A DNA stretch of 64,000 bases from an uncultured delta proteobacterium. GTDB taxonomy: Bacteria; Myxococcota; Myxococcia; Myxococcales; Myxococcaceae. This document shows, piece by piece, positions 3,589 to 59,811 of the stretch. The stretch covers positions 32,001-96,000 of the forward strand of contig CAWCKH010000006.1 of assembly GCA_963796055.1 (NCBI GenBank), in the 5' to 3' direction. The translations under genes were made by a program, and so were the position numbers. The first letter of the stretch is position 1, and each line of letters starts with the position of its first letter. The notes under the pieces are model-generated. The model ran no database searches. It was not told the origin of the DNA and was given only the letters and a program-made list of their open reading frames with translations.

Positions 3589-3670
3589 GCCCAGGTGGTG
3601 GAATTGGTAGACACACTAGATTCAGGGTCTAGCGCCGCGAGGCATGGAGGTTCGAGTCCTCTCCTGGGCA
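3589..3670 (+). tRNA. tRNA-Leu(CAG), CCA not encoded
   Basis: Acceptor GCCCAGG/CCTGGGC plus A discriminator; D-loop GGAATTGGTAGAC; anticodon arm CTAGA-TTCAGGG-TCTAG; long variable arm; T-loop GGTTCGAGTCC. Confidence 0.97.
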
Positions 3671-3744
3671 CTCAGTCGATGGACACCGCTGGCGTTCCGA
3701 GCCCGCCTCCGCCTCTCCGCCCATGGGGTCTTCGCTGGTAGCAT

Positions 3745-4500
3745 GTGAGGGTGCCGAGCGTCTCTCGTCGGCGGTCACTCGAGGACGGAGTCGTGGACGT
3801 GTGGTTCCTCGATCGTCCGGCGGCCTCGGCCCTCCCCGAGTCTTGGGTTCAGGCCCTCGACCCGGAGGAGCGTGCTCGGGCGAACGCGTTCCGGACTCCG
3901 GAACTCCGCGCCCGGTTCGTGGCCGCGCACGCGCTCGTGCGGACCGCCCTCGCAAGCTACGCGCCGCTCGGGCCCGAGGAGTGGCGCTTCGCCCACGGGC
4001 CGACGGGACGGCCGTCTCTTGTGGATCCACCGATCGATCTGCGGTTCAGCCTGAGCCACGCCGGAGCGCATGCCGCCGTCGCGGTCGCGGTCGGACGGAG
4101 GATCGGGCTGGACCTCGAGGAGATCGACGCAGCCGGGGACGCGCTCGGCATCGCCAGCCGCTTCTTCACCCCGTCCGAGCTGGCGATGCTCCGGGCTTGC
4201 GACGACCCGGAACGCGCGCAGCGCTTCACCACGCTCTGGACGGTCAAGGAGGCGGTGCTGAAGGCGCGAGGAGCGGGTCTGGCCTCGGGGTTGACGACGG
4301 TCGAGGTGCAGCTGGATTCCTCCGGAAACCTTCTCCCGGTGTCCGCTCCCGGCGGGCCGTGGAGCGTCGCTGCCTGGTCTCCCGCGACCCGACTCCGGGC
4401 GGCGCTCGCCGTTCAGGCCGGCACGCTGCTCACGCTGAGGGTCCTCGTGGCCATTCCGCTCGGAGCCGTGCGAGAAGCGCCCGAGCTCGGCCTCGGCTGA
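3745..4500 (+). CDS. Sfp-type 4'-phosphopantetheinyl transferase (start uncertain)
   Basis: GRP, FSLSH, IGLDLE and WTVKEAVLKA motifs. Confidence 0.92.
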   Translation: MRVPSVSRRRSLEDGVVDVWFLDRPAASALPESWVQALDPEERARANAFRTPELRARFVAAHALVRTALASYAPLGPEEWRFAHGPTGRPSLVDPPIDLRFSLSHAGAHAAVAVAVGRRIGLDLEEIDAAGDALGIASRFFTPSELAMLRACDDPERAQRFTTLWTVKEAVLKARGAGLASGLTTVEVQLDSSGNLLPVSAPGGPWSVAAWSPATRLRAALAVQAGTLLTLRVLVAIPLGAVREAPELGLG

Positions 4501-4525
4501 GCCGGCCATGCACCGGCAAGGACCA

Positions 4526-4688
4526 AGCCCTGACTGCGGCCGCCTGGCTCGCCCGGCGGCGGACCCGTGCATCCTCTCTGTCGCTCCGCCCGCGGACGCC
4601 CGACCCAGCCGTAACTGCGGCCGCCTGGCGGGCCCGGCGGCGGACCCGCGCATCCTTTCTGTTGCTCTGCCCGCGGACGCCCTGACCT
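4526..4688. repeat. Imperfect tandem repeat, 2 x ~81 bp, between convergent genes
   Basis: ACTGCGGCCGCCTGGC at 4533 and 4614; both units continue GCCCGGCGGCGGACCCG.GCATCCT.TCTGT.GCTC.GCCCGCGGACGCCC. Confidence 0.85.
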
Positions 4689-6486
4689 AGCGAGCGGCAC
4701 TCCGGCGCATCCCGAGCCCGAGCCGCCGCGACAGCCGCTCGACCACGCGCTCGGTGAGGAGTTCCTGCGCCCACAACTGCTCGAAGGTGTGGGAAGGCCC
4801 CTCTACGACGTCGACCTCGAAGGACGGGGCGCGCGAGAGCTGCCTCAGGACGGGCCCGGCCTCGCGCGCGAGGGCATCCACTCCTTCGTCGTCCGCTCCG
4901 AAGAGGAAATACACGTCGGTTCCACGTTGAACAAGGTCGCGCAGGTGACGGCCGACCTCGGGCTCCTCGCGGCGGAGCCCACCGGCCGCGCGCTCCCGGA
5001 GCCGCCGCCAGCCGCGGGCCACCAGCACCTGGCTCAGGTGGCGCAGCTGGAGCTCGCCCCTGATCGCCCTTCGCCATGTCTCGAGCCGGAGCAGCGCCCT
5101 CCGGTAGTAGCGCATCGACCCCAGCGTCTCCCGCTGACGGACGTCGAGCGAGTCCCCCTCCTTCCAGGTGAAGGTCTGGGGATTCACCGCCACCACGCCC
5201 GTGACGCGGAGGTCCACCACCGCCCCGTGGTATGCGAGGTACGCGCCGGAGCACAGCCCCACCAGGACGAAGCGCCGCGCGCCGGTGCTTTGCTCCAGGG
5301 CGTCCATCACCTCGCGCACCTCGGGAACCGACTCGGTGCCGTAAGCGTGGGTGGGGCTCTCGCCCGGGAGGAGCAAGCTGTCCCCCACGCCGGTCAGGTC
5401 GAAGCGGAGCGTCCGCAGCCCGAGGCCGGAGAGCGCCCGGGCGAGCCGTACCCAGAGGCGGTTCGGCCCGATGTGCTGGTGCGAGGCGGTGGTGAGGAAG
5501 AGCACCGTCGGGAGCACCTCGCTGCGCTCACGTACCGGAGCGCTGAGGACGCCCGCCATCATCCCCTCCTCACCGAGGCAGACCGCCTCCTCGACCACGT
5601 CCCGGGCGGCGACCCAGCGGCGCTCCTCGAGCTCGGCCCCCGAAGGGCGGCGAGGCGCGGAGATCGCCTTGCCCGCGACCTCGGCGAGGAACGCGGCGGT
5701 CCGGCCGAGCACGCCCTCGGGAACGACCGACTTCCGCGGCTGCTGCATCATCTCTTGCCAGCCCCTACCGGCCTCCAGCGTCAGCCGGGCACCGCGCTGC
5801 CTCCAGGCGCCGGCGAGTGCCTCGTCGGGCTCGCCCTCGCGCGAGAGGAGGAGCACCCGCGGCGCGGGCGGCCGGGAGAGCGCACGGAGATCGAGAGCCT
5901 CCAGCTCGCCTACCGTCGACCGGGTGAGGCGGTATCCGGCCGCCTCCTCGTCGGCCGCGGTCGGCGTGCCCCGCGGATCGGCGGACACCGCGTTGAGGAG
6001 CCGGTAGGCCCGAAGCTGCCGGACGTAGGCCCGGCCGGTGACGAGGGGCCCCCAGGCCACCAGCGCCTCCACGTCGGTGCGCTCGGCCGCGGCGTGGGCG
6101 GCGAGCGTCGCGCCCATCTGCAGCCCGGCGAGCGCCACGCGGGGAGCGCCCGACGTCCGCCGGGCCGCCTCCACCGCAGCGTGGACCGAGGCGATCCACG
6201 CCGCAACCCGGGCGGGGTCCTCGTCCGAACCTGGCGCGTCACCGGTGCCGGAGTAGTCGAAGCGGAGCACCGGGAAGCCGGCCGCGGCGAGGAGCTCGGC
6301 CCAGCGCACGAGGGTGAGGTACGTCGCCTCCGCCTCCCAGCCGATCGCCGGGCACAGCACCACCGGCAGCGAGCGAGCGTGGCCGCCCACGGGCGGATGC
6401 CACCAGCCGGGAAGGTGCCCCGCACCACACCCGAAGGCGAGCGGCCAGGGCCCGTCCGGGCGTATCACGTGCAGCCCGGGGGTCAA
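4687..6486 (-). CDS. Fused double alpha/beta-hydrolase-fold protein
   Basis: Two hydrolase folds: LRFDYSGTGD...GLQMG and LRFDLTGVGDS...GLCSG...GPSHTF; probable TTG start overlapping GH2 stop (ORF extends to 6531). Confidence 0.85.
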   Translation of the reverse strand: MTPGLHVIRPDGPWPLAFGCGAGHLPGWWHPPVGGHARSLPVVLCPAIGWEAEATYLTLVRWAELLAAAGFPVLRFDYSGTGDAPGSDEDPARVAAWIASVHAAVEAARRTSGAPRVALAGLQMGATLAAHAAAERTDVEALVAWGPLVTGRAYVRQLRAYRLLNAVSADPRGTPTAADEEAAGYRLTRSTVGELEALDLRALSRPPAPRVLLLSREGEPDEALAGAWRQRGARLTLEAGRGWQEMMQQPRKSVVPEGVLGRTAAFLAEVAGKAISAPRRPSGAELEERRWVAARDVVEEAVCLGEEGMMAGVLSAPVRERSEVLPTVLFLTTASHQHIGPNRLWVRLARALSGLGLRTLRFDLTGVGDSLLLPGESPTHAYGTESVPEVREVMDALEQSTGARRFVLVGLCSGAYLAYHGAVVDLRVTGVVAVNPQTFTWKEGDSLDVRQRETLGSMRYYRRALLRLETWRRAIRGELQLRHLSQVLVARGWRRLRERAAGGLRREEPEVGRHLRDLVQRGTDVYFLFGADDEGVDALAREAGPVLRQLSRAPSFEVDVVEGPSHTFEQLWAQELLTERVVERLSRRLGLGMRRSAAR

Positions 6487-8990
6487 GCCTGGCCTCCGAA
6501 GGGCGTGGGACCCGGGGCGTTGAGCGGCCACGCCGTTCCGCGCGGCGTCCCGCGGCGCGACCCCGCCACGAGCTCGACCCGGTGCGGAACCCCGGGCGCG
6601 AGATGGAAGAAGTCGTCCCGCGCCTCGACTCCCTCAATCTCGAGGGACACCGCCTGCGCGAAGCGATTCGCGGTGAGCTGCAGCGCCGATTGACCGCCGA
6701 GGTCCACGGTCTCCACCCGGAGCCGCAGCTCGGGATCGATGGAGGAGTGACGGCCGAGCGGAAAGTGGAAGGCCGCGGCGGAGAGCGGGCGGTCTCCCTC
6801 GCCGAGCCAATGCGCCACGACCAGGTCGTGGCTGGGAGGACCGAACCGGAAGGCGTACCCCACGTCGACGAACGTTCCGAGGACCTCCTCCGCCCAGACG
6901 CGCAACGACCCGCGCGCCTCGACGCGTACCGCCCGCTCGACGCACTGCAGCAGGAGGTGGCCCTCGCGGAAGAGGGTGATCCGCAGCCGCCCGCCGACCA
7001 GCTCCGGCCCGTCGTTGACGAGGTGGACGGCGATGCCGTTCGTTCCCTCGTCGGTCAGGAAGAGCGCTCGCGGGGCGAAGGCTCGCCGCAGCGCCCAGTA
7101 CGCGGACTTCGGGCGGCCGTGGGCGTCGACCACGCCCCACCCTGCCCCGGCCCAGAGGTCACGGAGGAACCAGACCAGGGCGCCGTTACACGTTGCGCCG
7201 TGGCGCCGCCACTCGCCGATCGTGGCGGTCATCACCTCGACGCTCACCGCCCGGCCGAGCGCGAGGTAGCGCTCGGGGTCCGAGGAGCGGACCTGGCCCG
7301 GCTCCACGCCGAAGAGCTGCTGGAGGTAGGCGTCGCGCACGTCCTCGAAGTCCCACTCCGCACCATTGTCTCGCGGCACGCGCGCCTGCCACAGCGGGTC
7401 CGCCGGGAGGCTCCGGACGTCCCCGAGCAGCTCCCGGACGGTCCGGCGGTCCGGCACGTTGGCAAAGGCGAGGCACTCGCTCGCGAACTTCACCTCCGCG
7501 CGGCGCGCATCCTCGAGCGGACGCCGGTAGGCCCCGACGCCGTAGTAGTGGGCCACGCCCTCGCCCGGCTGGAACGGAAGCGCACCTCCGCTCGGGCTGC
7601 TCGGGACGTAGGGCACGTCGGAGCCGGCCCGGACGCGCCCGGGGAGCACCTCGGCGAAGAGCGGGCCGCGCCAGAGATCCCGCTCGAGCCCGAGCATCGC
7701 GGCCTGCTGCTCGACCTCGCTGTTTCCGCAAAAGACCGCGGTGCTCGGCCGCCACCCGATGCGCGCCACCACCTCGTCGGCCTCGGCAGTCACCGCGCCG
7801 AGGAAGGCCGGATCGTCCCCCGGGTAGTCCAGGTTGGCGAACATGAAGTCCTGCCACACCAGGATGCCGAGGGCGTCGCAGGCGTCGTGGAACGCATCGT
7901 CCTCGTAGGCGAACGGCCCGGCGATGCGGAGCATGTTCATCCCGGCGTCGCGGGCCTGCTCGAGCGCCACCCCGAGCGCACCGGGAGCCGAACAGAGCGA
8001 GAGGACGTCGAGCGGTGTCCACGAGGCGCCGCGGCAGAAGATCCGCGTCCCGTTCACCCGCAGGCCGAAGCCGCCCCCCGCGGTGTCCGCCTCGAGAGAG
8101 CGGAACCCCACCGGCGCGAGCTCCACCTGGCCCACCCCCGGCAGGTGAATCTCGGGGCGGAACAGCACCGGCCGCCCGTGGGTGTGCGGCCACCAGCGCT
8201 CGATGTCGGGGAGCTCGATGCGCCCGGCGAGCTCCACGACGCCGGGCGCGAGCGAGCGGCCGGCGAGGGCGGTCTCCCGGCCGGCGATTCGGAGCTCGGC
8301 GGAGGACACGCGGTGGGCCGGGGCGCGGACGCGGAGCGACACCTCCAGCGTGCCGGTCGTTCCCGAGACCGTGGTCCGCAGCGTGGCTCCGAGCACCTCG
8401 GGCCCACGGCCGTGCTCGAGGAGCACCGGCCGGAAGGGGCCCACCGGCGGCGCGGGCGGCGTCCAGCCCGGGATGCGCCCGAGGAAGGTCGTCCGCCACC
8501 ACCGCAGCTGCTGCTGGGTGACGAGCCGCGTCTTCCAGCGCGGGCGTGGCCGCCTGGCGGCGAGGAGCGGACCGAGCGCGAGGAAGCGCAGGTGCAGCAC
8601 GTTCTCCGCGCGGATCAGCGGCCCCACATCGAGCCGGTGCCGCTGCCACATCGACTCGGAACGGAGGAGCCGCGTCCCGTTGAGCCACACCTCGGCCACC
8701 GTCGCCAGCCCGTCGAGACGGAGGGCGACATTCTCCGCGCCGGCCGGCCCCCGGAAGCGGAGCCGGTACCAGACGTCGGAATCGTCGAGGTCCCCCGCAC
8801 CGGTCGGGTCAACGCCGCGGGCGCGGAGCGCGCTGGCCAGCGTTCCCGGCACCTCGGCCGGCATCCACGGCTCGCCGAGTGCCTCCACCGCCGAGGGCGA
8901 GTCCGCCGCGTCCGGGGCGGTCCGGAGAAGCTCCCAGCCCTCCGCCAGAGCCCAGCGCTCCTGCCATTCGGTTCGCCGGATGCAGGCCAT
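6483..8990 (-). CDS. Glycoside hydrolase family 2 (beta-mannosidase-like)
   Basis: DGLATVAEVWLNG, AGMNMLRI, GILVWQDFMFAN, CGNSE and FASEC motifs. Confidence 0.9.
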   Translation of the reverse strand: MACIRRTEWQERWALAEGWELLRTAPDAADSPSAVEALGEPWMPAEVPGTLASALRARGVDPTGAGDLDDSDVWYRLRFRGPAGAENVALRLDGLATVAEVWLNGTRLLRSESMWQRHRLDVGPLIRAENVLHLRFLALGPLLAARRPRPRWKTRLVTQQQLRWWRTTFLGRIPGWTPPAPPVGPFRPVLLEHGRGPEVLGATLRTTVSGTTGTLEVSLRVRAPAHRVSSAELRIAGRETALAGRSLAPGVVELAGRIELPDIERWWPHTHGRPVLFRPEIHLPGVGQVELAPVGFRSLEADTAGGGFGLRVNGTRIFCRGASWTPLDVLSLCSAPGALGVALEQARDAGMNMLRIAGPFAYEDDAFHDACDALGILVWQDFMFANLDYPGDDPAFLGAVTAEADEVVARIGWRPSTAVFCGNSEVEQQAAMLGLERDLWRGPLFAEVLPGRVRAGSDVPYVPSSPSGGALPFQPGEGVAHYYGVGAYRRPLEDARRAEVKFASECLAFANVPDRRTVRELLGDVRSLPADPLWQARVPRDNGAEWDFEDVRDAYLQQLFGVEPGQVRSSDPERYLALGRAVSVEVMTATIGEWRRHGATCNGALVWFLRDLWAGAGWGVVDAHGRPKSAYWALRRAFAPRALFLTDEGTNGIAVHLVNDGPELVGGRLRITLFREGHLLLQCVERAVRVEARGSLRVWAEEVLGTFVDVGYAFRFGPPSHDLVVAHWLGEGDRPLSAAAFHFPLGRHSSIDPELRLRVETVDLGGQSALQLTANRFAQAVSLEIEGVEARDDFFHLAPGVPHRVELVAGSRRGTPRGTAWPLNAPGPTPFGGQA

Positions 8991-9002
8991 CGACCGCGCG
9001 CC

Positions 9003-9986
9003 TCAGAGCCCCAGCGCGGCGGCAGCGGCGGCGAGCGCCGTGCCCCATCCGCTGGACATCGTGGACAGGAGCGGGCCGAAGTCGGCGCGCTTGCCCGTGG
9101 AGACCGCCCGCGCACCCTTGAGGATGAGCGACTTGGCGGAGAGCGACACCAGGTCCAGCGCCGCAGCGGCTGTTTCGAGCGGGCGCTCGACGGCGGGCTG
9201 GAGCCAGCGGAGGTGGTGCGCCGCGAGATCCGCCGCCGACCCGAGCTGGCGCACGGTGGCGAAGGCGTAGAGGTGGTAGGTGGCCAGCGACTCCGGCCCC
9301 AGGCGGGCGACGGCGTCCGGGAAGCTCACCGCGAAGCGGGCGACCGGGTTCTCGCGGGGACGGCGGCGGAGGTGCGCGCGCGTGCACTCCAGCGCGAGGG
9401 CCATCAGCGCCTCGCGCGGCCGGAGGTGGAGGCTCTCCATGCGGACGAACTCGACGTACAGGGGAAGACGCCCGGGGTCTTCCGGCCCGTCGAGGTGGAA
9501 CAGCCCGCGGAAGTCCGCGCCCTCCAGCTCGAAGTACCCCGCATTGTGGAAGTACCCCAGCCGCTCCCTGCGGAGCTCGATGGCCTGAATTCCGATGGTG
9601 GTCTTGGTGTGCTGGGTCCGGTAGTCGGTTCCAGACGTGTCCGGCAGCCAGTGCGCGTCGACCTCGGCGAGCACCAGTCGTCCGCGGCGGACGAACTCCT
9701 CGATGTGCAGGTGGAGGGGCCGCCAGACGTTGAGCTCCTGAACGTCCACTCCGTGCAGCGCGGCGAGGTCGCCGTAGGTCTGCCTGAAGAAGGTGAACTG
9801 GTCCTCCTCGAAATCGAGGTCCAGGGTGCAGCCCAGTGCCGCCAGCGGGTCGTGGCCGCAGGAGTGAAGCACCTCGATCCACAGGTCCGCGAAGCAGTTC
9901 GTCTCCGGCCAGGGGCGATCACCCTGGTGCAGCGCGTGACGCACGTACGCGCTGGCGGACAGCGGCTGGAGCGCGGTGGCGATCAT
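9003..9986 (-). CDS. DUF1839-family protein (BtrH/papain-like putative acyltransferase)
   Basis: WPETNCFADLWIE, DFEEDQFTFF, EVDAHWLPDTSGTDYRTQHTKTTI, GYFHNAGYF; ATGA overlap with ligase stop. Confidence 0.8.
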   Translation of the reverse strand: MIATALQPLSASAYVRHALHQGDRPWPETNCFADLWIEVLHSCGHDPLAALGCTLDLDFEEDQFTFFRQTYGDLAALHGVDVQELNVWRPLHLHIEEFVRRGRLVLAEVDAHWLPDTSGTDYRTQHTKTTIGIQAIELRRERLGYFHNAGYFELEGADFRGLFHLDGPEDPGRLPLYVEFVRMESLHLRPREALMALALECTRAHLRRRPRENPVARFAVSFPDAVARLGPESLATYHLYAFATVRQLGSAADLAAHHLRWLQPAVERPLETAAAALDLVSLSAKSLILKGARAVSTGKRADFGPLLSTMSSGWGTALAAAAAALGL

Positions 9987-10891
9987 CGGTCCAGCACGGC
10001 CCGGACCGTCACCGGCCACTCCCGCAGATCGAGCCCGTGCCGACGGAACAGAGCCAGCGTCACCCGCTCGAGCCCGAACCCGAGGCAGGCGGTGTGCGCC
10101 GGGCTTCCCTCGGGCAGCGAGATCTCGAACAGCTTTCCGAAGTGTTCCTGGTGGTAGTTGAAGGAGCAGATCGCCGTCGGCTCCTCCGACGCGATCGGCA
10201 CCACGATCTCGAACTTGAAGCCCTGCTCCCGCTGGCTGGCGGCGAGCATCTTCCCCGCCCGGCCGAAGAACGGGTCCGAGGCGTGAACCGCCCGGGCATC
10301 GAGCCCGAGTGAGCCGAGCAGTGCGAGCGAGCGCTCCAGCCACGCCGCGCGCCACTCGAGCACCGCCTCGGGGCGCCCCACCCGGATGACCTCGTGCATC
10401 CGGAACAGCTGCAGGCGCGCCGGATCACCGGACGGCTCGTGGCGGAAGCAGTGGTTCTGCACCTCGAGCGTGCGCCCCCCCTCAGGCAGGACGCCGCGGA
10501 GCGTCGGGTACACCGGGTAGCAGGCGGCCGGAGTGAGCGCGACGTCGGTCGGGGTCTGCAGCTCGGCCCACGGCTCGCCGGCAGTCGCGCGCCGGCTCAG
10601 CTCCCGCGCCTGCGCCTCGGTGCCGGTGAAGGAGAAGACCGTGCCCGCGAGGTGGGGGAACGAGTCCAGGTAGCCGGTGCATTCCAGCAGCCGACGGGGG
10701 ATCACCGGCGGGAAGTGGAGACGCTCGGCGCCGTCCGCCGCGGCGAGCTCGGCCACCCGGGAATCGAACCGCCGGAGCACCGACTCGAACGTCTCGCTCC
10801 GCGCCCACACCCCCGGCACCCCCGAAGGGACGATGAGCCGGGCCCGGACCAGCTCCTCGTGGAACGCCAGCTGCCCGGGGGTGGTGGACAC
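9983..10891 (-). CDS. Amino acid--[acyl-carrier-protein] ligase (truncated atypical SerRS homologue)
   Basis: Class II aaRS motif 2 FRHE and motif 3 GFGLER; putative Zn triad TPAACY / RMHE / HTAC; 302 aa with no tRNA-binding domain; same operon as an ACP. Confidence 0.92.
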   Translation of the reverse strand: MSTTPGQLAFHEELVRARLIVPSGVPGVWARSETFESVLRRFDSRVAELAAADGAERLHFPPVIPRRLLECTGYLDSFPHLAGTVFSFTGTEAQARELSRRATAGEPWAELQTPTDVALTPAACYPVYPTLRGVLPEGGRTLEVQNHCFRHEPSGDPARLQLFRMHEVIRVGRPEAVLEWRAAWLERSLALLGSLGLDARAVHASDPFFGRAGKMLAASQREQGFKFEIVVPIASEEPTAICSFNYHQEHFGKLFEISLPEGSPAHTACLGFGLERVTLALFRRHGLDLREWPVTVRAVLDR

Positions 10892-10894
10892 GCG

Positions 10895-12083
10895 CTAGAA
10901 TCTCCTTCTGGACCAGGAGCACCGAGGCGTTCGCGGCGTAGAGCCGGTCGTTGGCCACCATGAGCGAAGCGCTCAACGCGTCCCGCAGCTGGCGCCCGAC
11001 ACTGAACGGCGAGTCGTTCTTGTAGCCGTTGATCCCGCAGATCTGGAGCCCGGCCTCGACGATGCGAGTGACCGCATGCGAGGCGTTGATCTTGAGATTG
11101 TTGATCCGGAGCGCGAAGGCCATCCCCGACAGCTCGCCCGAGCGGCTCGGGTCTTCGCGCAGCTCCTGGTACTCGGCCGCCATCGCCGAGAGGGAGGCAC
11201 GCATCGCCTGGAGCTCGGCGTGCACCTCGGCCAGCCGCAGGGCGGACGGAGGCGTGGTGCCGGGCTTCTTCCGGGCCTCGCCGCGCACGGAGGCCGCGGC
11301 CCGGTCGACGGCGCTGGTGGCGATGCCGGTCCACACCGCGCCCCACAGGAGATGCGAAACCGGGACCATGGTCTCGGCGCCGATGTCCGCGAAGGGAACC
11401 GGGAGGATCTGCTCCACCGAGGCCACGCCTTCCACCAGCCCACCCGCTGAGCAGGTCCCGCGCATCCCCAGCGCATCCCAGGTCCCCAGCTGCTTCAGCT
11501 GGTAGTCCTCCTTCTGGAAGAGGAGGAGCACCTGGTCACCCGGCGCGGAGTCGGTGCTCGCCCGGGCAGTGACGAGGAGATCGTCGGCCTGCACGCCGTA
11601 GGAGATGGTGGTCGCGTCCTTGGTGAGGCGGAACCGCTCCCGCTGCCGCTCCACCGCGCAGACCGAGGTCCGCAGCCCGCCACCGACCCCCACCTCCGAG
11701 GTGACGGAGGCGATGAGCCGCTGGGAGGCCGAGACTCGGCGCAGGTACGCCGGGAACCAAGGGCTGGCGAGCCCGTGGTGCACCAGGCACGCGACCTCGA
11801 TCTGGTGCATGGCGAAGATCATCGCCGTGGAGGCGCAGTGCTCGGCGAGCACCTCGCACACCTCGATCAGCTCGCGGATCGAGCACCCACCGCCGCCGAG
11901 GCTCGTCGGCACGTACGCCGACAGGAGCCGGGCCTGGCGGAGCGCCCAGATCGCCTCCTCGGGAAAGCGGCCCTCGCGGTCGACGGCGTTGGCGTGGCGC
12001 GAGGCCACCGTTCTTCCGATCTCCTCGGCCCGCTCCCGCAGGGTCGCTTGGTCGGACGTCGCGGTTTCGGCGGCGTGAGGCAC
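10895..12083 (-). CDS. Acyl-CoA dehydrogenase-like flavoprotein (stop displaced by a probable 1-nt insertion)
   Basis: DREGRFPEE, CASTAMIFAMH, WDALGMRGTCS; GAGGAG RBS before GTG 12083; GAG ATT C TAG becomes GAG ATC TAG if one base is removed at 10898-10902. Confidence 0.88.
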
Positions 12084-12121
12084 GGAGTGCTCCTCGAGGT
12101 TTCGGTGGGAGGGCGCCCCTG

Positions 12122-12376
12122 CTACGCGGCCCTGCTGCGCAGCTCGTCGAGCGCTGCCGCGATGGCGGAGATGCTCTCGAAGACGCTGCGGCGGAGCATC
12201 CGATCGGGAAACTCGACGTCGAAGTGCGCCTCCAGGGCGAGCATGACGTTGACACTGGCGTGCGAGGTCATGCCCGCTCGATAGAGGTCGTCTTCGGAAC
12301 GGATCTGCTCGATGGGGAGGGACAGCCTGCCATGCTTGCCGAGGATGGTTCGGATCGCGTCTTCCACGTGTCGCAA
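12122..12376 (-). CDS. Acyl/aminoacyl carrier protein
   Basis: DDLYRAGMTSHASVNVMLALEAHFDVEFPD with the Ppant Ser; 84 aa; first gene of the ligase operon. Confidence 0.92.
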   Translation of the reverse strand: MRHVEDAIRTILGKHGRLSLPIEQIRSEDDLYRAGMTSHASVNVMLALEAHFDVEFPDRMLRRSVFESISAIAAALDELRSRAA

Positions 12377-12493
12377 GATCGTCGCAAGGGAGGAGGGGAC
12401 CGGTCAACCTCTTCACGAGGCCGTGCGACATCCATTCCCGGTAATCCTCGGAGTGGGAGCGTGGCGGGTAATGCCCGACCCGGCGGATGGCAG

Positions 12494-13405
12494 TCAGCGC
12501 GCCCCACCGTCCGCGGTCCGAGACAGCGCGCGATCGAAGAATTCACCGAGCGCTGCATCGAGCCCGGTCGGATCGGCTTGGAAGAATCCACCATGCCCCG
12601 CACGCTGGGCGCGCCAGCGCAGGGAGTTCGGCACCTGGGCGGCGAGCGCGTCGTCGATCGCCGCCGGGGTATCGTCGTCGAGCGCTCCGGAGAGGAAGAG
12701 GAGCGGGCGAGGCGCGATGCGCCGGATCGCCTCCACCGGGCTGACCGCGCCGACGTCGACCCCGGAGAGACGGAAGACGCCGGCGGCCACCAGGGCCGAC
12801 TTCAGATGGGTCAGGGGGAAGCGGTGCCGGAGCTCGTCCCGCAGCGATGGCCATACCGGCCCGAGCGCCACGGCGCGGACGAGTGGATCGGCGGCGGCGC
12901 TCAGGGCCACGGTCGAGGCCCCGACCGAGAAGCCGTAGAGCCCGACGCGGGCCGGATCGACGCCCGGCCGGCTACGGACCCAGCGGAGCGCGGCCCCGAC
13001 GTCTCGCCGCTCCCGGTCTCCCCAGGTGGCCAGCGAGCCCTCGCTCGCACCGCTCGCGCGGGAGTCGAAGAGGAGCACCGAGTGACCGCGGCGAAGAAGG
13101 AGGGCCGCCTCGGGGAGGAGCTCGGCGCGGTTGGCCCCGAGCCCGTGCACCAGCACCACCGCCGAGCCCCTGCTTCCCGGAGCGTACCAGCCGCGGAGCA
13201 CGAGCCCATCCTCGGTGCGAAGCTCGGCCGGCTCGAGCCCCGGAAGGGAGCGGCGCGCCCCGGCGAGGTCCGCGTCCGTCGGCGGGCGGCGCTGCGGATG
13301 GAGGTCGCGGAGCGCCGCAGGGACGGTGTGCCAGGTCACGCTGACGACGAGGAGAATGGCGAACCCGGCCACCCACCCTGCAGCGCGGCTGAGCGGGCCA
13401 CCCAA
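12494..13405 (-). CDS. Membrane-anchored alpha/beta hydrolase
   Basis: N-terminal TM segment, LVHGLG, GFSVG nucleophile elbow, GALDD and AGH triad residues. Confidence 0.85.
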   Translation of the reverse strand: MGGPLSRAAGWVAGFAILLVVSVTWHTVPAALRDLHPQRRPPTDADLAGARRSLPGLEPAELRTEDGLVLRGWYAPGSRGSAVVLVHGLGANRAELLPEAALLLRRGHSVLLFDSRASGASEGSLATWGDRERRDVGAALRWVRSRPGVDPARVGLYGFSVGASTVALSAAADPLVRAVALGPVWPSLRDELRHRFPLTHLKSALVAAGVFRLSGVDVGAVSPVEAIRRIAPRPLLFLSGALDDDTPAAIDDALAAQVPNSLRWRAQRAGHGGFFQADPTGLDAALGEFFDRALSRTADGGAR

Positions 13406-13418
13406 GGCGGCGGAGCGC

Positions 13419-14780
13419 TCAGTGGCTACCGCGGCCGCTCACCACCGCGGGAACGGTCTTCAGGATGAGCCCGATGTCCTGACCCATGCTCCAGTGGTCG
13501 ATGTACTGGAGGTCGAGGTACATCCAGTCGTCGAAGGCGACGTTGTTACGTCCGCTGACCTGCCACAGACAGGTGAGCCCGGGCGGCACGGAGAGTCGGC
13601 GGTGCTGCCACGGCTCGTACTGCGCGACCTCCTGGGGAACGGGCGGACGGGGACCGACCAGGGTCATGTCCCCGCGGAGCACGTTCACCAGCTGCGGTAG
13701 CTCGTCGATGCTGTATTTGCGGAGGATGCGACCCAGCGGGGTGACCCGCGGATCGTGCTTCATCTTGAAGACCGGACCGCTCTGCTCGTTTTGCGCGAGG
13801 AGCTTCGCCTTCAGCTCCTCGGCGTTCGAGACCATGGAGCGAAACTTGAGCATGTTGAACTTCTTGCCGTGCAGCCCGACCCGGACCTGCCGGAAGAAGA
13901 CCGGGCCCCGCGAGGTGAGCTTCACCAGGGCGGCGATCACCAGCAGGAACGGGGAAAGCACCCAGAGCCCCGCCGCCGAGCCGGCGATGTCGAGGAGGCG
14001 CTTCAGCGCACGATGCTCTGGGCGCAGCACTCCGCCGGTCACGTAGTGGAGGAAGCCGTCGGCCACGGCCTTGCTCGCCACCGGCTGAGCCCTGCCGAGA
14101 CGAACGCTGTACGCGGGCAGCGCGAAGGGAACACCGTAGGTCTCGCAGACGTTCACCGCCTCCTGCACCGCGGCCTGCCGGTCGGGGAGACCGCAGAGGT
14201 ACACCTCGTCGAAGGCGCGGCCGTTGAGGACCTGGGGCAGCTCCCGCGCCAGACCGAGCACCTCGCCTCCGAGTGGCTTGGTGACCACCTCTCCCGGCCA
14301 GGTGAGGAAGCTGCAGACGGAGTCCTTGCGGCCGAGATCCTCACCGGTGATCCGGCCGAGGGGGCCCGCGCCGATGATCAGTATCTGCCGCTGCGCGCGT
14401 CCCTGACTCTGGAGAACGCCGTGGGCCGTCAGGCGCAGGAACACGAGGACAGGCAGAGCGACGGCGAGCATCGTCGCCACGCTCGGGGCGTCGCCTCCGA
14501 CGACGCGACCTCCGAGCCCGAGCACGGTCGCGACCGCGAGGAGGATGATGAGGGTGATGAGCAGGTCGTCGAGCAGCGGGCGCTCGCTTGCCGAACCGTA
14601 GTGACGCACCACCGAGCTCGTTCCCCAGAACACGAGCACCGCGCTGGCGACGGAGAGCGCCTGCACCAACCACGCGCCCCGCGTCGCGAGTAGCACCGCA
14701 GCCGAGAGCGCAGCGAGGTCGAGCCCGAGCGCGAGCTTCGCCGCAGGAGTCGGAGCGAATCGATGAATGCTGAGAATCAC
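13419..14780 (-). CDS. Priming polyisoprenyl-phosphate hexose-1-phosphate transferase (WcaJ/WbaP/EpsZ-like)
   Basis: N-terminal TMs, IIGAG domain, KRLLDI, KFRSM, DELPQL, LVGPRP, DLQYID; start 14780 (GTG) or 14807. Confidence 0.95.
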   Translation of the reverse strand: MILSIHRFAPTPAAKLALGLDLAALSAAVLLATRGAWLVQALSVASAVLVFWGTSSVVRHYGSASERPLLDDLLITLIILLAVATVLGLGGRVVGGDAPSVATMLAVALPVLVFLRLTAHGVLQSQGRAQRQILIIGAGPLGRITGEDLGRKDSVCSFLTWPGEVVTKPLGGEVLGLARELPQVLNGRAFDEVYLCGLPDRQAAVQEAVNVCETYGVPFALPAYSVRLGRAQPVASKAVADGFLHYVTGGVLRPEHRALKRLLDIAGSAAGLWVLSPFLLVIAALVKLTSRGPVFFRQVRVGLHGKKFNMLKFRSMVSNAEELKAKLLAQNEQSGPVFKMKHDPRVTPLGRILRKYSIDELPQLVNVLRGDMTLVGPRPPVPQEVAQYEPWQHRRLSVPPGLTCLWQVSGRNNVAFDDWMYLDLQYIDHWSMGQDIGLILKTVPAVVSGRGSH

Positions 14781-15035
14781 TCCTCCTCCACGCGCAGCTC
14801 GTTTCAACGAGCGAGTTGGTCGACCTGTGGTGCCTCAGGCGACGGGCGCGGAGTCTTCCTCACCACCTCACAACACACAAAGGTCTTTTGTGTGTCGCGT
14901 GCATGAGGTTTCGCACACCCAGGGTCGCCGTTGCCCGAGGTCGGAGCACCACGTCCGACCGGGCGTGACGCGATCACAATCCGTCGTGCACGTCGGATCG
15001 ACCGAAAGATCGGGTCGAGAATGACTCGGCAAGCA

Positions 15036-41520: not shown

Positions 41521-42312
41521 TCACCGTGCCGGGTCCTCCCCCAGCCGTCGCTCGGCGTCGAGGAAGAAGCCGTCGCGGACGGCGACCCGCTCCCCGGGAC
41601 CGAGGCCCTCCAGGACCGCGGTCAGGCCGAAGTTGGTCCCGCCGACCCGAACCGGGCGACGGGGGAAGTGCCGTCCATCAGGAGACGGGGAGATTACCGC
41701 CGTCTCCTCGCCGGAGAAGAGCAGCGCCGAGGCCGGCAGGATCAGGAGGTCAGCCCGACGCGCCGGCCACTCCACCATCCCCACCGTTCCCGGAGCCAGC
41801 GCCGGCCCACCCTGCTCGACGACGAGAGCGGCACGGGACGTTGTGTCGTCCCAGCGCACGAGGCGGCTCCGGTCGAGTCGCACCCGGATCCGCTCGGCCG
41901 GCCCTGCGGTCGGAGTGAAGGTTCCGCGCTCGCCGTCATGCAAACAGATGAGGTCGTCGTCGTGGATCACCGCCCAGCCGGCCCGGCTCGTCTCGAGCCA
42001 GGCGGCGCCGCTCGGCTCCTGGGCCACCACCTGTCGTCGCGCGACCTCCACGGCCCCGGGTGAAAGCCGGGGAGGCTCGTCCGGCGCAGAATCGGCTCCT
42101 CCTCCGGCGCGTACCAGCGCCATCCCGCACACCGGGCAGGTCCCGGGTGCACGCGCACGAACCTGGGCGTGCATCGGACAGACGAAGCCCGGCGCCCCGT
42201 TCGCCTCGTCCGGCCGGCGGGCCAGGGCGAAGGCGAGCACCACCGCCCCGAGCGCCGCCAGCACGAGCCCGACCCGCGCTGCGGTGACCAGCGACGCCAC
42301 GGACCTGGTCAA
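41521..42312 (-). CDS. Short CusB-like adaptor with heavy-metal-binding domain
   Basis: N-terminal TM; FVCPMH...GTCPVCGMAL; C-terminal LPASAL...VLEGLGPGERVAVRDGFFLDAE; TTG start overlaps asnB stop. Confidence 0.75.
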   Translation of the reverse strand: MTRSVASLVTAARVGLVLAALGAVVLAFALARRPDEANGAPGFVCPMHAQVRARAPGTCPVCGMALVRAGGGADSAPDEPPRLSPGAVEVARRQVVAQEPSGAAWLETSRAGWAVIHDDDLICLHDGERGTFTPTAGPAERIRVRLDRSRLVRWDDTTSRAALVVEQGGPALAPGTVGMVEWPARRADLLILPASALLFSGEETAVISPSPDGRHFPRRPVRVGGTNFGLTAVLEGLGPGERVAVRDGFFLDAERRLGEDPAR

Positions 42313-44246
42313 CGACGAACCCCGTTGCCCTGGCACCAGCGGACCAGGACGTAGAGGGACCAGACCCGGGACCAGTACAGACCTGGCGCCCGGTCGCGGA
42401 ACGCCCGCCACAGCCGGGCCACCGTCCCGGGCTCGAGCCCGGCCGCCCGAACCGCCTCCCCGTCGCGGAGGGTCCGGTCGATCTCCGGACCGAGCCCCTG
42501 GCGGATCCAGCGATCGAAGGGGAGCACGAAGCCGCGCTTGGGGCGCTCGAAGAGGGCCGGGGGGAGCCCGCGCAGGCCCGTGCGCCGCAGCGCCGCCTTC
42601 CGGAGAAGCGGCTCGTAGCGCGGGGCATCGGGAAGCCGGTACACCGCCTCGACGAGACTTGCGTCCACCAGCGGGAGCCGCTGCTCGATGGAGGCGGCCA
42701 TGCTCGCCACGTCGTTGTCCCGGAGCAGTCGCTCGCCCAGGAAGAGCCGCTGCTCGAGCACGCTGATCGCCGCCAGCCGGGAACGGCCATGGATCTCCCG
42801 ATGCAGCCGGGCGCGCACGGCGGGAGGAAGCCCTATCTCGAGCAGGCTCGCCCCCTCCCGTCCGAGGAGCTGCTCCTGGAAGTCGGGCAGGAACTGGGCG
42901 TAGGCGAGCTGGTAGAGCGAGAGCAGATCGTCTCCCCGCCGCACCATCTCCGGGAGCTTGGCCCATCGGGTCTGGCGGGGAACCTCGCCCTGCTGCCGCT
43001 GGAGCGCGGCCACCCCGATCTGCGCGCTGCCCACCAGGGCTCCGCGGGGAACCCAGTCCAGCCGCTGCGACCAGCGGTGGAGCACGGGCAGGTCGCGGAA
43101 GCTGCCGTAGCCGCCGAAGAGCTCGTCCCCTCCGGTGCCCACCAGGGCGACGGTGAACCCCGCCTCCCGTACCGCGCGGGACATGAAGTACGAGTTGAGC
43201 CCGTCGAAGGTGGGCTGATCGAGACTGTCGAGGGCCCTCTCCAGCTCTCCCACGAAGCGGGCCTCGGTCAGGACCACCTCCTGGTGCCGGGTCCCGATGG
43301 CCTGGGCGATCTGGCGGGCGACCTGGCCCTCGTTGAACTCCTCCTCCTCGAACGCGAGGGTGAAGGTGTGGACCGGCCCCCGCTGGGCGCGCTGGGCGAT
43401 GTTGGCAACCGCCGACGAGTCGATGCCGCCGGAGAGGAACACCCCCAGCGGAACGTCGCTGATCAGATGGCCACGGACGCTCTCTTCCAGCACTGCGGCG
43501 AGGTCGTCCTCGGCGATCTCCGGTCCCTGCCCGGGCGCGGGGAGCTGCCAGTACTGCCGCGCGTCCGCGGAACCGTCCTCGCGGACCTCGCGGAGCTCGC
43601 CGGGCAGGAGCGACTCCACTCCCTGCACCGCCGTCCCCGGACCGACCACGAAGCCGTTCCAGACCATCGATGCCGCCGCGACGGGGTCGAGCCGCGGCGT
43701 CCCGAGCAGCCCGGAGGCGAGCAGCGCGCGTATCTCCGAGGCGAAGGCGAACGTCCACCCGCTCGAGGGGTCACCGGAGCGAGCGACGTAGAGCGGCTTG
43801 ATGCCGAGTGGGTCTCGCGCGAGCAGCAGGATCCGGCGGTGCGGGTCCCAGCAGGCCAGGGCGAACATCCCCCGGAACGAGGAGAGCGAGGCCGCGCCCT
43901 CGGTGGCGAGCGCTCGCAGCACCACCGCCGCGTCGCCGGTCGAGCCGAAGGTGTGACCGGCGGCGCCGAGCCGAGCCCGGAGCTCCTGGAAGTTGTAGAC
44001 CTCGCCGTTGAAGAGGAGGACGTGCCCGGTGGTCGGATCGACCATCGGCTGGTGTCCGGCCGGAGAGAGGTCGAGGATCGACAGACGCCGGAAGGCGAGC
44101 AGCGCTCCCTGCTGGTCCGGCCCAGGCGCCGATTCCCAGGTGCCGGAGTCATCCGGTCCGCGGTGCACCATCGCGTCGCTCATCCGCTTCAGGGCGGCGC
44201 GGTTCGCCTCGTCGATGCGGCCCAGGATGCCGGCGATTCCACACAT
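42309..44246 (-). CDS. asnB: Asparagine synthetase B-like glutamine amidotransferase
   Basis: MCGIAG Ntn start; HRGPD, RRLSILD, FNGEVYN, LSGGIDSS and GGDELFGGY motifs. Confidence 0.92.
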   Translation of the reverse strand: MCGIAGILGRIDEANRAALKRMSDAMVHRGPDDSGTWESAPGPDQQGALLAFRRLSILDLSPAGHQPMVDPTTGHVLLFNGEVYNFQELRARLGAAGHTFGSTGDAAVVLRALATEGAASLSSFRGMFALACWDPHRRILLLARDPLGIKPLYVARSGDPSSGWTFAFASEIRALLASGLLGTPRLDPVAAASMVWNGFVVGPGTAVQGVESLLPGELREVREDGSADARQYWQLPAPGQGPEIAEDDLAAVLEESVRGHLISDVPLGVFLSGGIDSSAVANIAQRAQRGPVHTFTLAFEEEEFNEGQVARQIAQAIGTRHQEVVLTEARFVGELERALDSLDQPTFDGLNSYFMSRAVREAGFTVALVGTGGDELFGGYGSFRDLPVLHRWSQRLDWVPRGALVGSAQIGVAALQRQQGEVPRQTRWAKLPEMVRRGDDLLSLYQLAYAQFLPDFQEQLLGREGASLLEIGLPPAVRARLHREIHGRSRLAAISVLEQRLFLGERLLRDNDVASMAASIEQRLPLVDASLVEAVYRLPDAPRYEPLLRKAALRRTGLRGLPPALFERPKRGFVLPFDRWIRQGLGPEIDRTLRDGEAVRAAGLEPGTVARLWRAFRDRAPGLYWSRVWSLYVLVRWCQGNGVRR

Positions 44247-58143: not shown

Positions 58144-59589
58144 TCAGAGCTCCCGGAACTCACCCAGGAGCGGGACACCGATGACGTGCTCGACCTGCCA
58201 GTCCTCGAGCACCTTCCGGGAGGCGAGGTCCAGGAGGGCCACCCCGATGACGCCGAGGACGAAGCCGGCCACGATGCTAGCGATGATGATCAGCCCCGGC
58301 TTGGGCTTGATCGGGCCCCTCGGCAGCTGCGGCGGCTTGATCACGCTGTACCGGTACTTGAAGGCGGCCTGAGCACTGTCCTGCTGGAGGCGCGCGCCGT
58401 CGATGCGATCGAGCAGACCGTTGTAGCGGGCGATGGCATGCCGGACCTGGGTCTTGACGTACTCGATCTCCGGATCTTCAGCCTCCCGCGCGTCCTCGGG
58501 ATCCAGACCCGCCGCCAGGTCGCGGGTTCGCGCAGCCTTCAGCGCCACCTCGTCGAGGAGGCCCCGCTGCTTGAGCTCCGATTCCAGGGGCAGCAGCTCC
58601 TTCTGGAGGGCCGCCACCTGTGGCGACTCCCTCCGCAGCGCTTCCAGGCTCCCTTTCAGGTCGACCACCGCCGGATAGGTGTCGGAATAGAGCGCCTTCT
58701 GTTCCTGGAGCTTGCCTTCCAGCTCGGTGATCCGCCGACGCCGGGCGTCCTCGAGATCGGCGATCGCCCGTCGCCTGCTCTCCACCTGCACCGCCAGCTG
58801 GGAGGCCTTCGGATCGAGCGGGGTGACGGTGGGGGTCTCGACCGGTCGTCGGACGCGCTTCCCCAGCTTGAGCGCGCGCGCCGAGCGGAGCTCCTCCAGC
58901 TTCCGGCGCGACTCGTCCAGCGCCTCCTTCGCGATGGAGGCCCGGTTCTCGAGGATGGCGATGGCGTCGCCGATGCTGGAGATCTCGGCGACGTGACGCG
59001 CCTCGAGGAAGTTGTCCAGCGCCGACTCCATCAGGTTGAAGGCCAGCTGCTTGTCCGGGAAGTGGATGCCGATGGTCACCGTGCCTTCCCCGGTGGCGAC
59101 CCACATCTGCTTCTCCAGATAGCCGACGAAGGACTCGATCTTCTCGTCCCGGGTGGGGCGGCGGAAGAGCTTTTCCCAGATCGCGTCCTTCACCCTGAGG
59201 GCCGGCGCGCGCCGGAGCGGCCAGCGGTCCAACAGAGCGGTCTGGTCGATCAGGGCCACCAGGTTGTCGTGCCGGAGCACGGTCTCGGCGGCCTGCTTGG
59301 TGGGTGCATCCAGACCGCCCGGAACGGCGCGATCGGTCAACGCGGCGATCGTCTCCGCCTTCTGGGCCTGGAGGGTCGTCATCACCTCGAAGGTCTTGGG
59401 AAGCACCGCCAGGAGCGCGACGACGATCGCCACCACCCCGAGCCAGACCGACGCCAGCAGCAGCCGGTGCCGCCTCATGGCGTGGACCACCAGGAGCGCG
59501 AACCGGCCGATGGCCGACCAGTCGAAGAGGTCGACGGGGAGGGTCTCCAGCTTCCGGTTCTTGGCCCCTGGCCGGGTGGGATGCCTCAT
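58144..59589 (-). CDS. Polysaccharide co-polymerase 2 (paralogue of 17563-19017)
   Basis: Shared AAE.VLR.DNL..LI.QT, NFLE.RH..E.S.I and AAFKYRYSV..PP; start 59589 assumed (ORF extends to 59631). Confidence 0.88.
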   Translation of the reverse strand: MRHPTRPGAKNRKLETLPVDLFDWSAIGRFALLVVHAMRRHRLLLASVWLGVVAIVVALLAVLPKTFEVMTTLQAQKAETIAALTDRAVPGGLDAPTKQAAETVLRHDNLVALIDQTALLDRWPLRRAPALRVKDAIWEKLFRRPTRDEKIESFVGYLEKQMWVATGEGTVTIGIHFPDKQLAFNLMESALDNFLEARHVAEISSIGDAIAILENRASIAKEALDESRRKLEELRSARALKLGKRVRRPVETPTVTPLDPKASQLAVQVESRRRAIADLEDARRRRITELEGKLQEQKALYSDTYPAVVDLKGSLEALRRESPQVAALQKELLPLESELKQRGLLDEVALKAARTRDLAAGLDPEDAREAEDPEIEYVKTQVRHAIARYNGLLDRIDGARLQQDSAQAAFKYRYSVIKPPQLPRGPIKPKPGLIIIASIVAGFVLGVIGVALLDLASRKVLEDWQVEHVIGVPLLGEFREL

Positions 59590-59633
59590 GGCCCAGGGCT
59601 CTCCATCGGCAGGGAGTGTATCATCCGCCACCG

Positions 59634-59810: not shown

Positions 59811-59811
59811 T

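Follow-up and report, generated by a model that had tools for sequence, protein, structure and literature searches.

A carrier-protein-dependent amino acid cassette inserted between tRNA-Leu and epsZ within one genus of Myxococcaceae, and its candidate role in exopolysaccharide decoration

When an amino acid is loaded onto a small carrier protein instead of tRNA, and the genes concerned stand at the head of an exopolysaccharide (EPS) locus, is the polysaccharide the acceptor? This question is raised by a stretch of 64,000 nucleotides (the window; positions 32,001 to 96,000 of contig CAWCKH010000006.1, assembly GCA_963796055.1) from an uncultured soil bacterium of the family Myxococcaceae. The minus strand of the window bears an operon, referred to here as the cassette, for an acyl carrier protein (ACP), a flavoenzyme with the acyl-CoA dehydrogenase (ACAD) fold, an amino acid:[carrier protein] ligase, a DUF1839 protein, a GH2 protein and a fused double hydrolase. 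Such cassettes are known and widespread; the present copy is an ordinary one and contains no new kind of gene. What is new is that genomes of one genus differ in whether tRNA-Leu and epsZ are separated by the block from a 4'-phosphopantetheinyl transferase (PPTase) gene to the gene of a membrane-anchored hydrolase, a presence/absence insert that travels with one of two types of EPS locus. We tentatively propose, giving it close to an even chance, that a carrier-borne, probably oxidised small amino acid is passed by DUF1839 to a sugar amine that, in this genus, belongs to the EPS pathway. Listed below are the block and the genes at its borders:

3589-3671, plus strand: tRNA-Leu(CAG), found with ARAGORN; the variable block starts directly after its 3' end
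3745-4500, plus strand: Sfp/HetI-type PPTase (PF01648), converging on the hydrolase gene of the operon; within the insert
4687-6531, minus strand: fused double alpha/beta hydrolase (alternative start 6486), related to TIGR03101 and TIGR03100
6483-8990, minus strand: GH2 beta-mannosidase-like protein without a signal peptide, matching beta-mannosidases of the PDB
9003-9986, minus strand: DUF1839 protein (PF08893, E 4.7e-103)
9983-10891, minus strand: amino acid:[carrier protein] ligase (NF005479, 404.5 bits, cut-off 357)
about 10895-12125, minus strand: ACAD-fold flavoenzyme (Pfam Acyl-CoA_dh_N, Acyl-CoA_dh_1 and Acyl-CoA_dh_2)
12122-12376, minus strand: cognate ACP (NF005480, 109.9 bits, cut-off 72)
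12494-13405, minus strand: membrane-anchored alpha/beta hydrolase (Pfam Abhydrolase_1, Peptidase_S15 and S9); within the insert
13419-14807, minus strand: EpsZ-like polyprenyl-phosphate sugar-phosphate transferase, the priming enzyme (TIGR03025, 350.5 bits, cut-off 295.55); outside the insert

Comparison of 13 genomes of the same genus demonstrated that a ligase above the family cut-off was present in four (G000, G004, G005, and G010) and missing from nine, several of which are only 66–89% complete. No ligase reached the cut-off in 28 genomes of other genera of the family and order. The three other carriers were syntenic with the window from hscA to the EPS genes. Four cassette-less genomes have fdx and tRNA-Leu beside epsZ, and the same tRNA-Leu comes after fdx in sister genomes both with and without the block. 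The gap between the tRNA and epsZ measured about 180 bases in G007 and about 190 bases in G003, which represent empty sites, and the PPTase gene was likewise missing at this site in four cassette-less sister genomes. Thus, the cassette-less sister sites indicate that the stretch from the PPTase gene to the membrane-anchored hydrolase gene (3672–13418, 9.7 kb) is an insert at a variable site adjacent to the tRNA gene. The variable site after tRNA-Leu was compared in the sister loci L095–L098. No support was obtained for the block as a mobile island: with up to 3 mismatches allowed, the last 22 bases of the tRNA gene had a single occurrence in the window, which leaves no attachment repeat there, and no integrase was seen in the block.

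The EPS side of the locus was compared over approximately 55–60 kb between the window, two carriers (G010 and G004) and three non-carriers, that is, three genomes against three. The export and priming genes were at about equal distance from those of the window in carriers and non-carriers, and HscA was 90–93% identical in both groups, the frameshifted copy of G004 aside. The sugar genes behaved differently. The identity of the nucleotidyltransferase to that of the window was 84–88% in carriers and 57–58% in non-carriers, while the corresponding values for the PIG-L deacetylase were 76–78% and 53–56%. In addition, seven genes were found in carriers only, including a DRL/SAF oxidoreductase, a GFO/IDH/MocA oxidoreductase, an SDR and part of a UDP-GlcNAc 2-epimerase. 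Thus, in this small sample, the EPS locus (window 15164–61404) exists in two types, and the cassette goes with one of them.

Since the G+C content of the window is about 71%, genes were called by frame analysis of third-position G+C (GC3) and then checked by family scans (Pfam, NCBIfam). The original prediction, made from the bare sequence, had described a tightly coupled minus-strand operon running from the ACP through the ACAD-like protein, the ligase, DUF1839 and GH2 to the double hydrolase, with an Sfp-type PPTase converging on it and the priming transferase upstream on the same strand. Both GC3 and the family scans confirmed this order, and the PF01648 match and the TIGR03025 score above its cut-off bore out the PPTase and the priming transferase; every listed gene is present, closely packed and intact. 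The list had omitted one gene, that of the membrane-anchored hydrolase between epsZ and the ACP gene. Its further statement that no nonribosomal peptide synthetase or polyketide synthase is present agrees with our result, as neither was found among the window genes scanned. According to the coordinates, the operon junctions are 4-base overlaps or gaps of 3–13 bases, with the exception of 117 bases ahead of the ACP gene, and 13 bases separate epsZ from the gene of the membrane-anchored hydrolase, which follows it on the same strand. A simple hydropathy screen detected no hydrophobic N-terminus or membrane segment in the six core proteins, and a hydrophobic N-terminus in the membrane-anchored hydrolase. 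The gene of the latter is present in G004 and G005 and absent from G010.

One gene of the operon appeared damaged in the assembly. As assembled, the reading frame of the ACAD-like protein has no stop codon until 10482 and reads on into the ligase gene for 137 out-of-frame codons. A single surplus base is located at window 10899/10900; it is omitted by the otherwise identical contigs of the public soil runs X1 and X3 (both from a single study, with a depth of about 3 and possibly from the source sample itself). Without this base the protein ends in “...VQKEI-stop,” the same as in the relatives G005 and G010. The window and G004 share one extra T at the end of the ACAD gene, where intact relatives read GATC, and the occurrence of the same extra base in another few-contig assembly suggests a systematic long-read error. 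In genome G004 (locus L009), hscA, fdx, DUF1839 and the hydrolase are frameshifted as well, apparently through errors of assembly and not through decay. A pseudogene or a gene fusion was rejected on the evidence of the relatives’ gene ends and of the run contigs that lack the surplus base. The ACAD-like gene is most likely intact, the extra base being an assembly error.

The window starts on the plus strand with the tail of an isc operon (NifU, IscA, HscB, HscA, and ferredoxin), followed by tRNA-Leu(CAG) and the PPTase gene. On the other side of the block, epsZ is the first gene of the EPS locus and was found in every sister genome searched. Beyond it, on the plus strand, the best matches are to EpsY, EpsX, EpsW, EpsV and a Wzx, followed by sugar-nucleotide genes and, farther along, by glycosyltransferases, a second polysaccharide co-polymerase (PCP) and a Wzy. 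The block is therefore located at the head of what is probably a Myxococcus-type EPS locus. The NCBIfam models of EpsZ (1.6e-156), EpsY (6e-76), EpsV (2.5e-110) and Wzy_EPS (2.6e-98), as well as those of EpsX and EpsW, were the best matches at this locus, each below its equivalog cut-off, as expected because the genus is distant; the subfamily model TIGR03025 was passed. The second, EpsV-like PCP gene and the gene of the Wzy_EPS-like polymerase lie at window 58144–61404, about 40 kb from the first PCP gene, and therefore the polysaccharide region covers most of the window. At window 42309–44246, an asparagine synthase-like amidotransferase resembling the XrtA/PEP-CTERM amidotransferase (TIGR03108, below cut-off) is encoded; it occurs in both EPS-locus types.

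A scan of one genome per species yielded 597 relatives of the ligase, and the counts of loci given here and below refer to the best 80 of these 597, many of which are cut by contig ends. The 80 loci span at least six phyla, among them Myxococcota, Pseudomonadota (alpha, beta, and gamma), Actinomycetota, Chloroflexota, Gemmatimonadota and Acidobacteriota, and cultured carriers of the cassette include Mesorhizobium, Kaistia, Azospirillum and Bradyrhizobium. Searches with the window proteins (tblastn) found the ligase in 80 loci, DUF1839 in 76, the ACAD-like protein in 76, the ACP in 71, GH2 in 69 and the double hydrolase in 58. The gene order is the same as in the window in most loci, and in a few the gene of GH2, the ACP or the hydrolase is displaced or inverted. 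A small AcpS-type PPTase adjoins the cassette in 43 loci, mostly just upstream of the ACP gene; a methyltransferase is found nearby in nine, and relatives of the membrane-anchored hydrolase adjoin it in three. Beyond these, no gene family of the flanks was shared by more than 8 of the 80 loci. The neighbourhood of GH2, DUF1839, ligase, ACAD and ACP genes is already given in the supplement of an earlier paper on papain-like proteins (Ozhelvaci and Steczkiewicz, JBC 2023, PMC10318531), and the cassette is therefore less new than the original prediction implied.

The association of the cassette with polysaccharide genes was examined in two ways. Among 156 flank proteins of 19 diverse loci scanned with Pfam, clear assembly genes, defined as a priming transferase, flippase, polymerase, export or chain-length protein together with glycosyltransferases, were found in six loci, and a lone glycosyltransferase or acyltransferase-3 in five. 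A tblastn panel of polysaccharide markers was then applied to the 49 loci of at least 17 kb, with the same-genus locus excluded and markers counted within 10 kb. Strong markers were present in 11 of the 49 long loci and any marker in 19; for the 30 loci outside the building of the panel, these numbers were five and nine. Counted by taxon label, strong markers occurred in 11 of 28. Among the loci in which polysaccharide genes adjoin the cassette are L032 (Mesorhizobium) and L041 (Kaistia). The background, obtained with the same panel in 520 half-overlapping windows of this genome, was 13 windows with strong markers (2.5%) and 31 with any (6%). The loci are not independent, the background comes from a single genome and the panel is crude; with these limits, the enrichment looks real, and the link to polysaccharide genes is recurrent and not obligatory.

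What, then, might the encoded proteins do? In the PPTase, PF01648 matched with E 2e-20 and the best NCBIfam model was HetI (E 1.8e-34, below its cut-off). The genome has three PF01648 matches, compared with one, one and two in three cassette-less sisters. The ACP, whose gene is located two genes upstream of the ligase gene in the same operon, carries Ser38 within the motif G-M-T-S-H; this residue was invariant in 45 of 45 sequences and is the predicted phosphopantetheine site. The ligase belongs to the Bll0957-type system, and it matched the structures 4h2w and 3mey (Bll0957) with E 8e-82 over residues 15–300. Its 302 amino acids correspond to the catalytic core of seryl-tRNA synthetase (SerRS) without the tRNA-binding domain: SerRS models matched at positions 306–503 of 518 only, and the type-2 SerRS of the PDB aligned to it only through residues 299–506 of its chain. 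Residues C124, E152 and C269 were invariant in 12 of 12 aligned sequences, and they may be the counterparts of the zinc ligands (Cys/Glu/Cys) of Bll0957. With the ligase and ACP above curated cut-offs and the ligase so close to known structures, the PPTase, carrier and ligase logic of the original prediction appears sound as far as protein families can tell. The ligase exists as one copy in the genome. Distant ligase-like genes occur in the genus and family at L005–L007 (fetched larger as L012–L014; G001, G019, and G007) and at L008 (a second match in G004); those of L012–L014 have 33–36% identity to the window ligase, all distant copies are below the NF005479 cut-off, and one of the genomes is cassette-less.

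The loading step of amino acid:[carrier protein] ligases has reportedly been characterised structurally and kinetically since 2010, and our literature searches found no paper that names a product of such ligases. According to two reviews, Bll0957-type ligases do not charge tRNA but attach Gly or Ala to the phosphopantetheine arm of a neighbouring carrier, which the reviews cite as shown for Bll0957, Bll6282 and Atu2573 (PMC9437257; PMC5370406). By analogy with these families, the Sfp-type PPTase would convert the apo-ACP into the holo-ACP at Ser38, and the ligase would form an aminoacyl-adenylate and then a thioester on the phosphopantetheine arm.

The next protein in the predicted pathway is the flavoenzyme. 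Its ACAD fold is supported by three Pfam domains (PF02771, 3.6e-12; PF00441, 1.9e-9; PF08028, 7.7e-7). However, the usual catalytic Glu of ACADs was not found in an alignment of 58 sequences: after R381-D382, residues M389, N392 and R394 are conserved and none is Glu. The position of the base after Arg-Asp was assumed from medium-chain acyl-CoA dehydrogenase. In an alignment with PDB 7p98, V390 occupies the usual base position, and an alternative base elsewhere is possible. The protein matches dehydrogenases about as well as N-oxygenases (KijD3 and DnmZ) and flavin monooxygenases (DszC, SfnB, and HsaA). The original suggestion that a flavoprotein oxidises the carrier-bound amino acid is thereby weakened: the ACAD fold is there, the usual base of an acyl-CoA dehydrogenase is missing, and oxygenases match equally well. 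We expect that the enzyme would modify the carrier-bound amino acid, and amine oxidation or N-oxygenation is favoured over alpha,beta-dehydrogenation because the usual catalytic Glu is absent and Gly has no beta carbon. A flavin reductase gene stands beside the cassette in three of the 80 loci (L040, 3655–4701; L078, 17084–17749; L030, about 13660), and with such neighbours the ACAD-like enzyme may be a two-component monooxygenase in some lineages. As a regular partner of the ACAD-like enzyme, the flavin reductase was rejected, three loci being too few for a two-component monooxygenase reading.

The transfer of the cargo is assigned to DUF1839. The model of this protein (predicted local distance difference test, pLDDT, 94.7) consists of a papain-like N-terminal domain and a helical C-terminal domain. 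Cys31, invariant in 45 of 45 sequences, opens helix 31–42 in the model; H147, D158 and E108 are also invariant and H126 is at least 90% conserved, and these are candidates for the other residues of a Cys-His-Asp/Glu triad. The fold neighbours identified with Foldseek and VIA-align were CcbD, AziU3/U2 and CtaG, and the protein shares the two-part architecture and the helix-start Cys of the papain-like thiotemplated ligases CcbD, CtaG, BtrH and AsbE. The nearest language-model clusters outside DUF1839 were of the BtrH_N+DUF4872 type. The likeness to BtrH-type enzymes is at the level of fold, not of sequence family. A sequence search against PDB chains gave no match at E up to 1, and a fusion (“Rosetta stone”) search among longer proteins gave two matches (880 and 894 amino acids) without an informative partner domain. 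In CcbD/LmbD, a carrier-tethered proline is first bound to the Cys of the enzyme and then joined to the amino group of the amino sugar of lincosamides (PMC12945683). CtaG, AsbE and BtrH form one class of papain-like ligases that use carrier-bound donors (PMC12865890), and the supplement of the CtaG paper has no mention of DUF1839, seryl, glycoside hydrolase or acyl-CoA dehydrogenase. In addition, DUF6005, which stands at the AsbE position of its operon, is reported in the 2023 survey as a remote homologue of DUF1839 (PMC10318531). On the evidence of the modelled fold, DUF1839 is predicted to be a carrier-protein:amine acyltransferase with Cys31 as the nucleophile. It would take the acyl group onto Cys31 and then pass it to an amine in a ping-pong reaction, as CcbD does with an amino sugar.

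The two remaining enzymes are a glycosidase and a hydrolase. GH2 aligned end to end with beta-mannosidases of the PDB (E 5e-51, residues 18–808), its GNSE and ASEC motifs corresponding to GNNE and SEY of PDB 6bye. E425 and E505, which presumably are the catalytic pair (acid/base and nucleophile), were conserved in at least 97% of 50 homologues, and no hydrophobic N-terminus was present. In the fused hydrolase, residues 43–254 resemble TIGR03101 and residues 342–601 resemble TIGR03100, as relatives and not members of these families: TIGR03100 gave 111.6 bits (cut-off 168.45) and TIGR03101 gave 90.7 bits (cut-off 202.75). The Cys nucleophile named in the original prediction is real and confined to the second domain, where Cys427 in G-L-C-S-G was found in 47 of 47 homologues, Asp/Glu548 in 46 and His581 in 46. 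The first domain has no nucleophile, as its elbow is occupied by Arg in 28 and Gly in 15 of the 47. The model of the protein (pLDDT 88.1) has two alpha/beta domains; Foldseek returned generic esterase, lipase and thioesterase neighbours only, and ESM Atlas returned only generic alpha/beta hydrolases for domain 2. The cytoplasmic GH2 and the Cys-type double hydrolase might prepare or trim the sugar acceptor or clear a mis-loaded carrier, which is the weakest step of the scheme.

None of the six core proteins has a signal or membrane segment, and the reaction would therefore take place at the cytoplasmic face of the membrane, with a nucleotide sugar or a lipid-linked repeat unit as the acceptor. 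In this scheme, the loading steps are predicted from family membership, the transfer step from the fold and the acceptor from the context. Taken to its most specific form, the proposal is that an oxidised glycyl or alanyl group is placed by the cassette on the amino nitrogen of a sugar in the EPS repeat unit, at the cytoplasmic face and without tRNA, and that the presence or absence of the cassette, together with a handful of linked sugar-modifying genes, defines two chemically distinct EPS types; we consider it rather unlikely that all of these details hold.

Several results weigh against the transfer of the amino acid to an EPS sugar. The site after tRNA-Leu holds other DNA in two cassette-less genomes, about 0.9 kb in G006 and about 3.4 kb in G008, the latter with an open reading frame for a membrane protein of about 1000 amino acids. 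With such a variable site adjacent to the tRNA gene, the position of the cassette beside epsZ could be partly circumstantial. The co-variation with the EPS type, seen in three genomes against three, could be explained by physical linkage alone. In the flanks of 8 of the 19 loci scanned with Pfam, no polysaccharide gene was found, and no polysaccharide marker was detected within 10 kb in 30 of the 49 long loci. In all six Undibacterium, four Ramlibacter and five Azospirillum loci the cassette stands alone, and it is likewise alone in the bll0957 region of Bradyrhizobium. Given the marker-less loci, the genes for the acceptor may lie elsewhere, or the acceptor may be something other than a polymer. 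With regard to DUF1839, matches to BtrH_N (PF14399) were weak and limited to 4 of 45 members (best E 0.0084), and hhalign of DUF1839 with four BtrH_N proteins gave a probability of 49.7%. One of its three best structural neighbours, AziU3/U2, makes an aziridine and is no transferase. In the survey that classes it as papain-like (Ozhelvaci and Steczkiewicz, JBC 2023, PMC10318531), the site of DUF1839 is given as non-canonical, a rearranged C(T/S)H. Three of the 80 loci (L029, L047, and L068) have the ACP, ligase and hydrolase without DUF1839, ACAD and GH2, and from these minimal loci the hydrolase may be the basic off-loading enzyme. Furthermore, literature searches found no experimental study of a cassette member downstream of the ligase. 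In locus L029, a DAO-family FAD oxidase is encoded upstream and GT4 genes downstream. The idea of polysaccharide decoration advanced in the original prediction thus survives in part: the recurrent link to polysaccharide loci (11 of 49 against a background of 2.5%) and the co-variation with EPS type support it, whereas an obligatory link is contradicted by the marker-less majority of long loci.

The same observations can also be explained by a pathway complete in itself, which yields a soluble aminoacyl- or oxoacyl-sugar or some other small metabolite; DUF1839 would then act on a free amine, GH2 would supply or release the sugar part, and the position at epsZ would reflect an insertion hotspot adjacent to tRNA. 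A glycosidase is part of the cassette and a PPTase accompanies it in 43 of 80 loci, and the scarcity of recurrent flanking families, the 30 marker-less long loci, with all 15 of Undibacterium, Ramlibacter and Azospirillum among them, and the unrelated inserts of G006 and G008 fit such a pathway. BtrH, CcbD, AsbE and CtaG, moreover, all belong to small-molecule pathways. However, polysaccharide markers near the cassette are several-fold above the background of this genome and reach 11 of 28 taxon labels, the gap to epsZ on the same strand is only 13 bases, the cassette co-varies with the EPS-locus type, and no transporter or regulator is conserved with it in the 80 loci. We regard a soluble product as doubtful, although quite possible.

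A different division of labour within the cassette was also considered, namely that the Cys-type double hydrolase off-loads and transfers the cargo, while DUF1839 performs other on-carrier chemistry (like AziU3/U2, which is among its top fold matches) or editing. Conservation of Cys427, Asp/Glu548 and His581, the three minimal loci that keep the hydrolase without DUF1839, and the resemblance of its halves to TIGR03101 and TIGR03100, the “exosortase A system-associated hydrolases” of NCBIfam, are consistent with this arrangement, which we nevertheless judge improbable. A lipid or peptidoglycan as the destination of the cargo, in place of a secreted polysaccharide, is very improbable: the 2023 survey offers guesses of glycan, fatty-acid or phospholipid processing for DUF1839, with “fatty acid/phospholipid protein processing” in a table and cell-wall glycans in the text (PMC10318531), and a class A penicillin-binding protein is encoded near one locus (L019), but no lipid-synthesis gene is conserved with the cassette, and the characterised ligases, in the passages cited above (PMC9437257; PMC5370406), load Gly or Ala and not fatty acids.

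The preferred reading, transfer to a sugar amine of the EPS pathway, can be set beside known systems. The ligase and ACP belong to the same families as Bll0957 and its carrier in Bradyrhizobium and Atu2573 in Agrobacterium (PDB 3mey and 4h2s–4h2y), which were studied for the loading step only. In a published table, bll0958, adjoining bll0957, is annotated as an acyl-CoA dehydrogenase (PMC10888616). Unlike the Bll0957 system, the block described here follows epsZ directly, its PPTase is of the Sfp type and not of the AcpS type, and a membrane-anchored hydrolase is added. The likeness of DUF1839 to CcbD/LmbD is limited by a sequence identity of about 15% to CcbD. In addition, the donor carrier of CcbD/LmbD is part of a protein resembling nonribosomal peptide synthetases and is loaded by an adenylation domain. 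The triad of CcbD is Cys-His-Glu, whereas C(T/S)H has been given for DUF1839 (PMC10318531).

With CtaG, AsbE, BtrH and MllDE, DUF1839 shares the two-part architecture; however, the sequence links are weak, and those enzymes make antibiotics or siderophores, none of them with a SerRS-like ligase. The butirosin pathway also modifies a carrier-bound amino acid before its transfer to an amino sugar. The Dlt system (DltA, DltC, DltB, and DltD) resembles the cassette in the tRNA-independent delivery of an amino acid on a small carrier to a cell-surface glycopolymer (D-alanylation of teichoic acid). Its ligase is an adenylation-domain enzyme, and the transfer across the membrane is carried out by an MBOAT protein; the core of the cassette, unlike Dlt, has no membrane protein and includes a flavoenzyme step. 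The XrtA-associated set (ligase, ACP, decarboxylase, and hydrolases 1 and 2; TIGR03098–03101) sits in EPS loci with its ligase and ACP, and the two halves of the fused hydrolase are best matched by its hydrolases 2 and 1. Unlike that set, which has no DUF1839, GH2 or ACAD, the cassette has a different type of ligase, and its hydrolase scores are below the cut-offs.

In conclusion, the window adds a natural presence/absence pair inside an EPS locus and a measured, partial enrichment of the cassette beside polysaccharide genes, as well as a strong argument from the modelled fold that DUF1839 may move the cargo to a sugar amine. If the transfer to an amino sugar of the EPS is true, it would provide the first biological product for the amino acid:[carrier protein] ligases, orphan since 2010, and it would mean that two chemically distinct types of EPS exist in one myxobacterial genus. 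Many bacterial surface polysaccharides bear amide-linked amino acids, and for many of these we know of no enzyme that installs them. If the cassette carries out such decoration, it would explain part of the amide-linked amino acid chemistry of surface polysaccharides.

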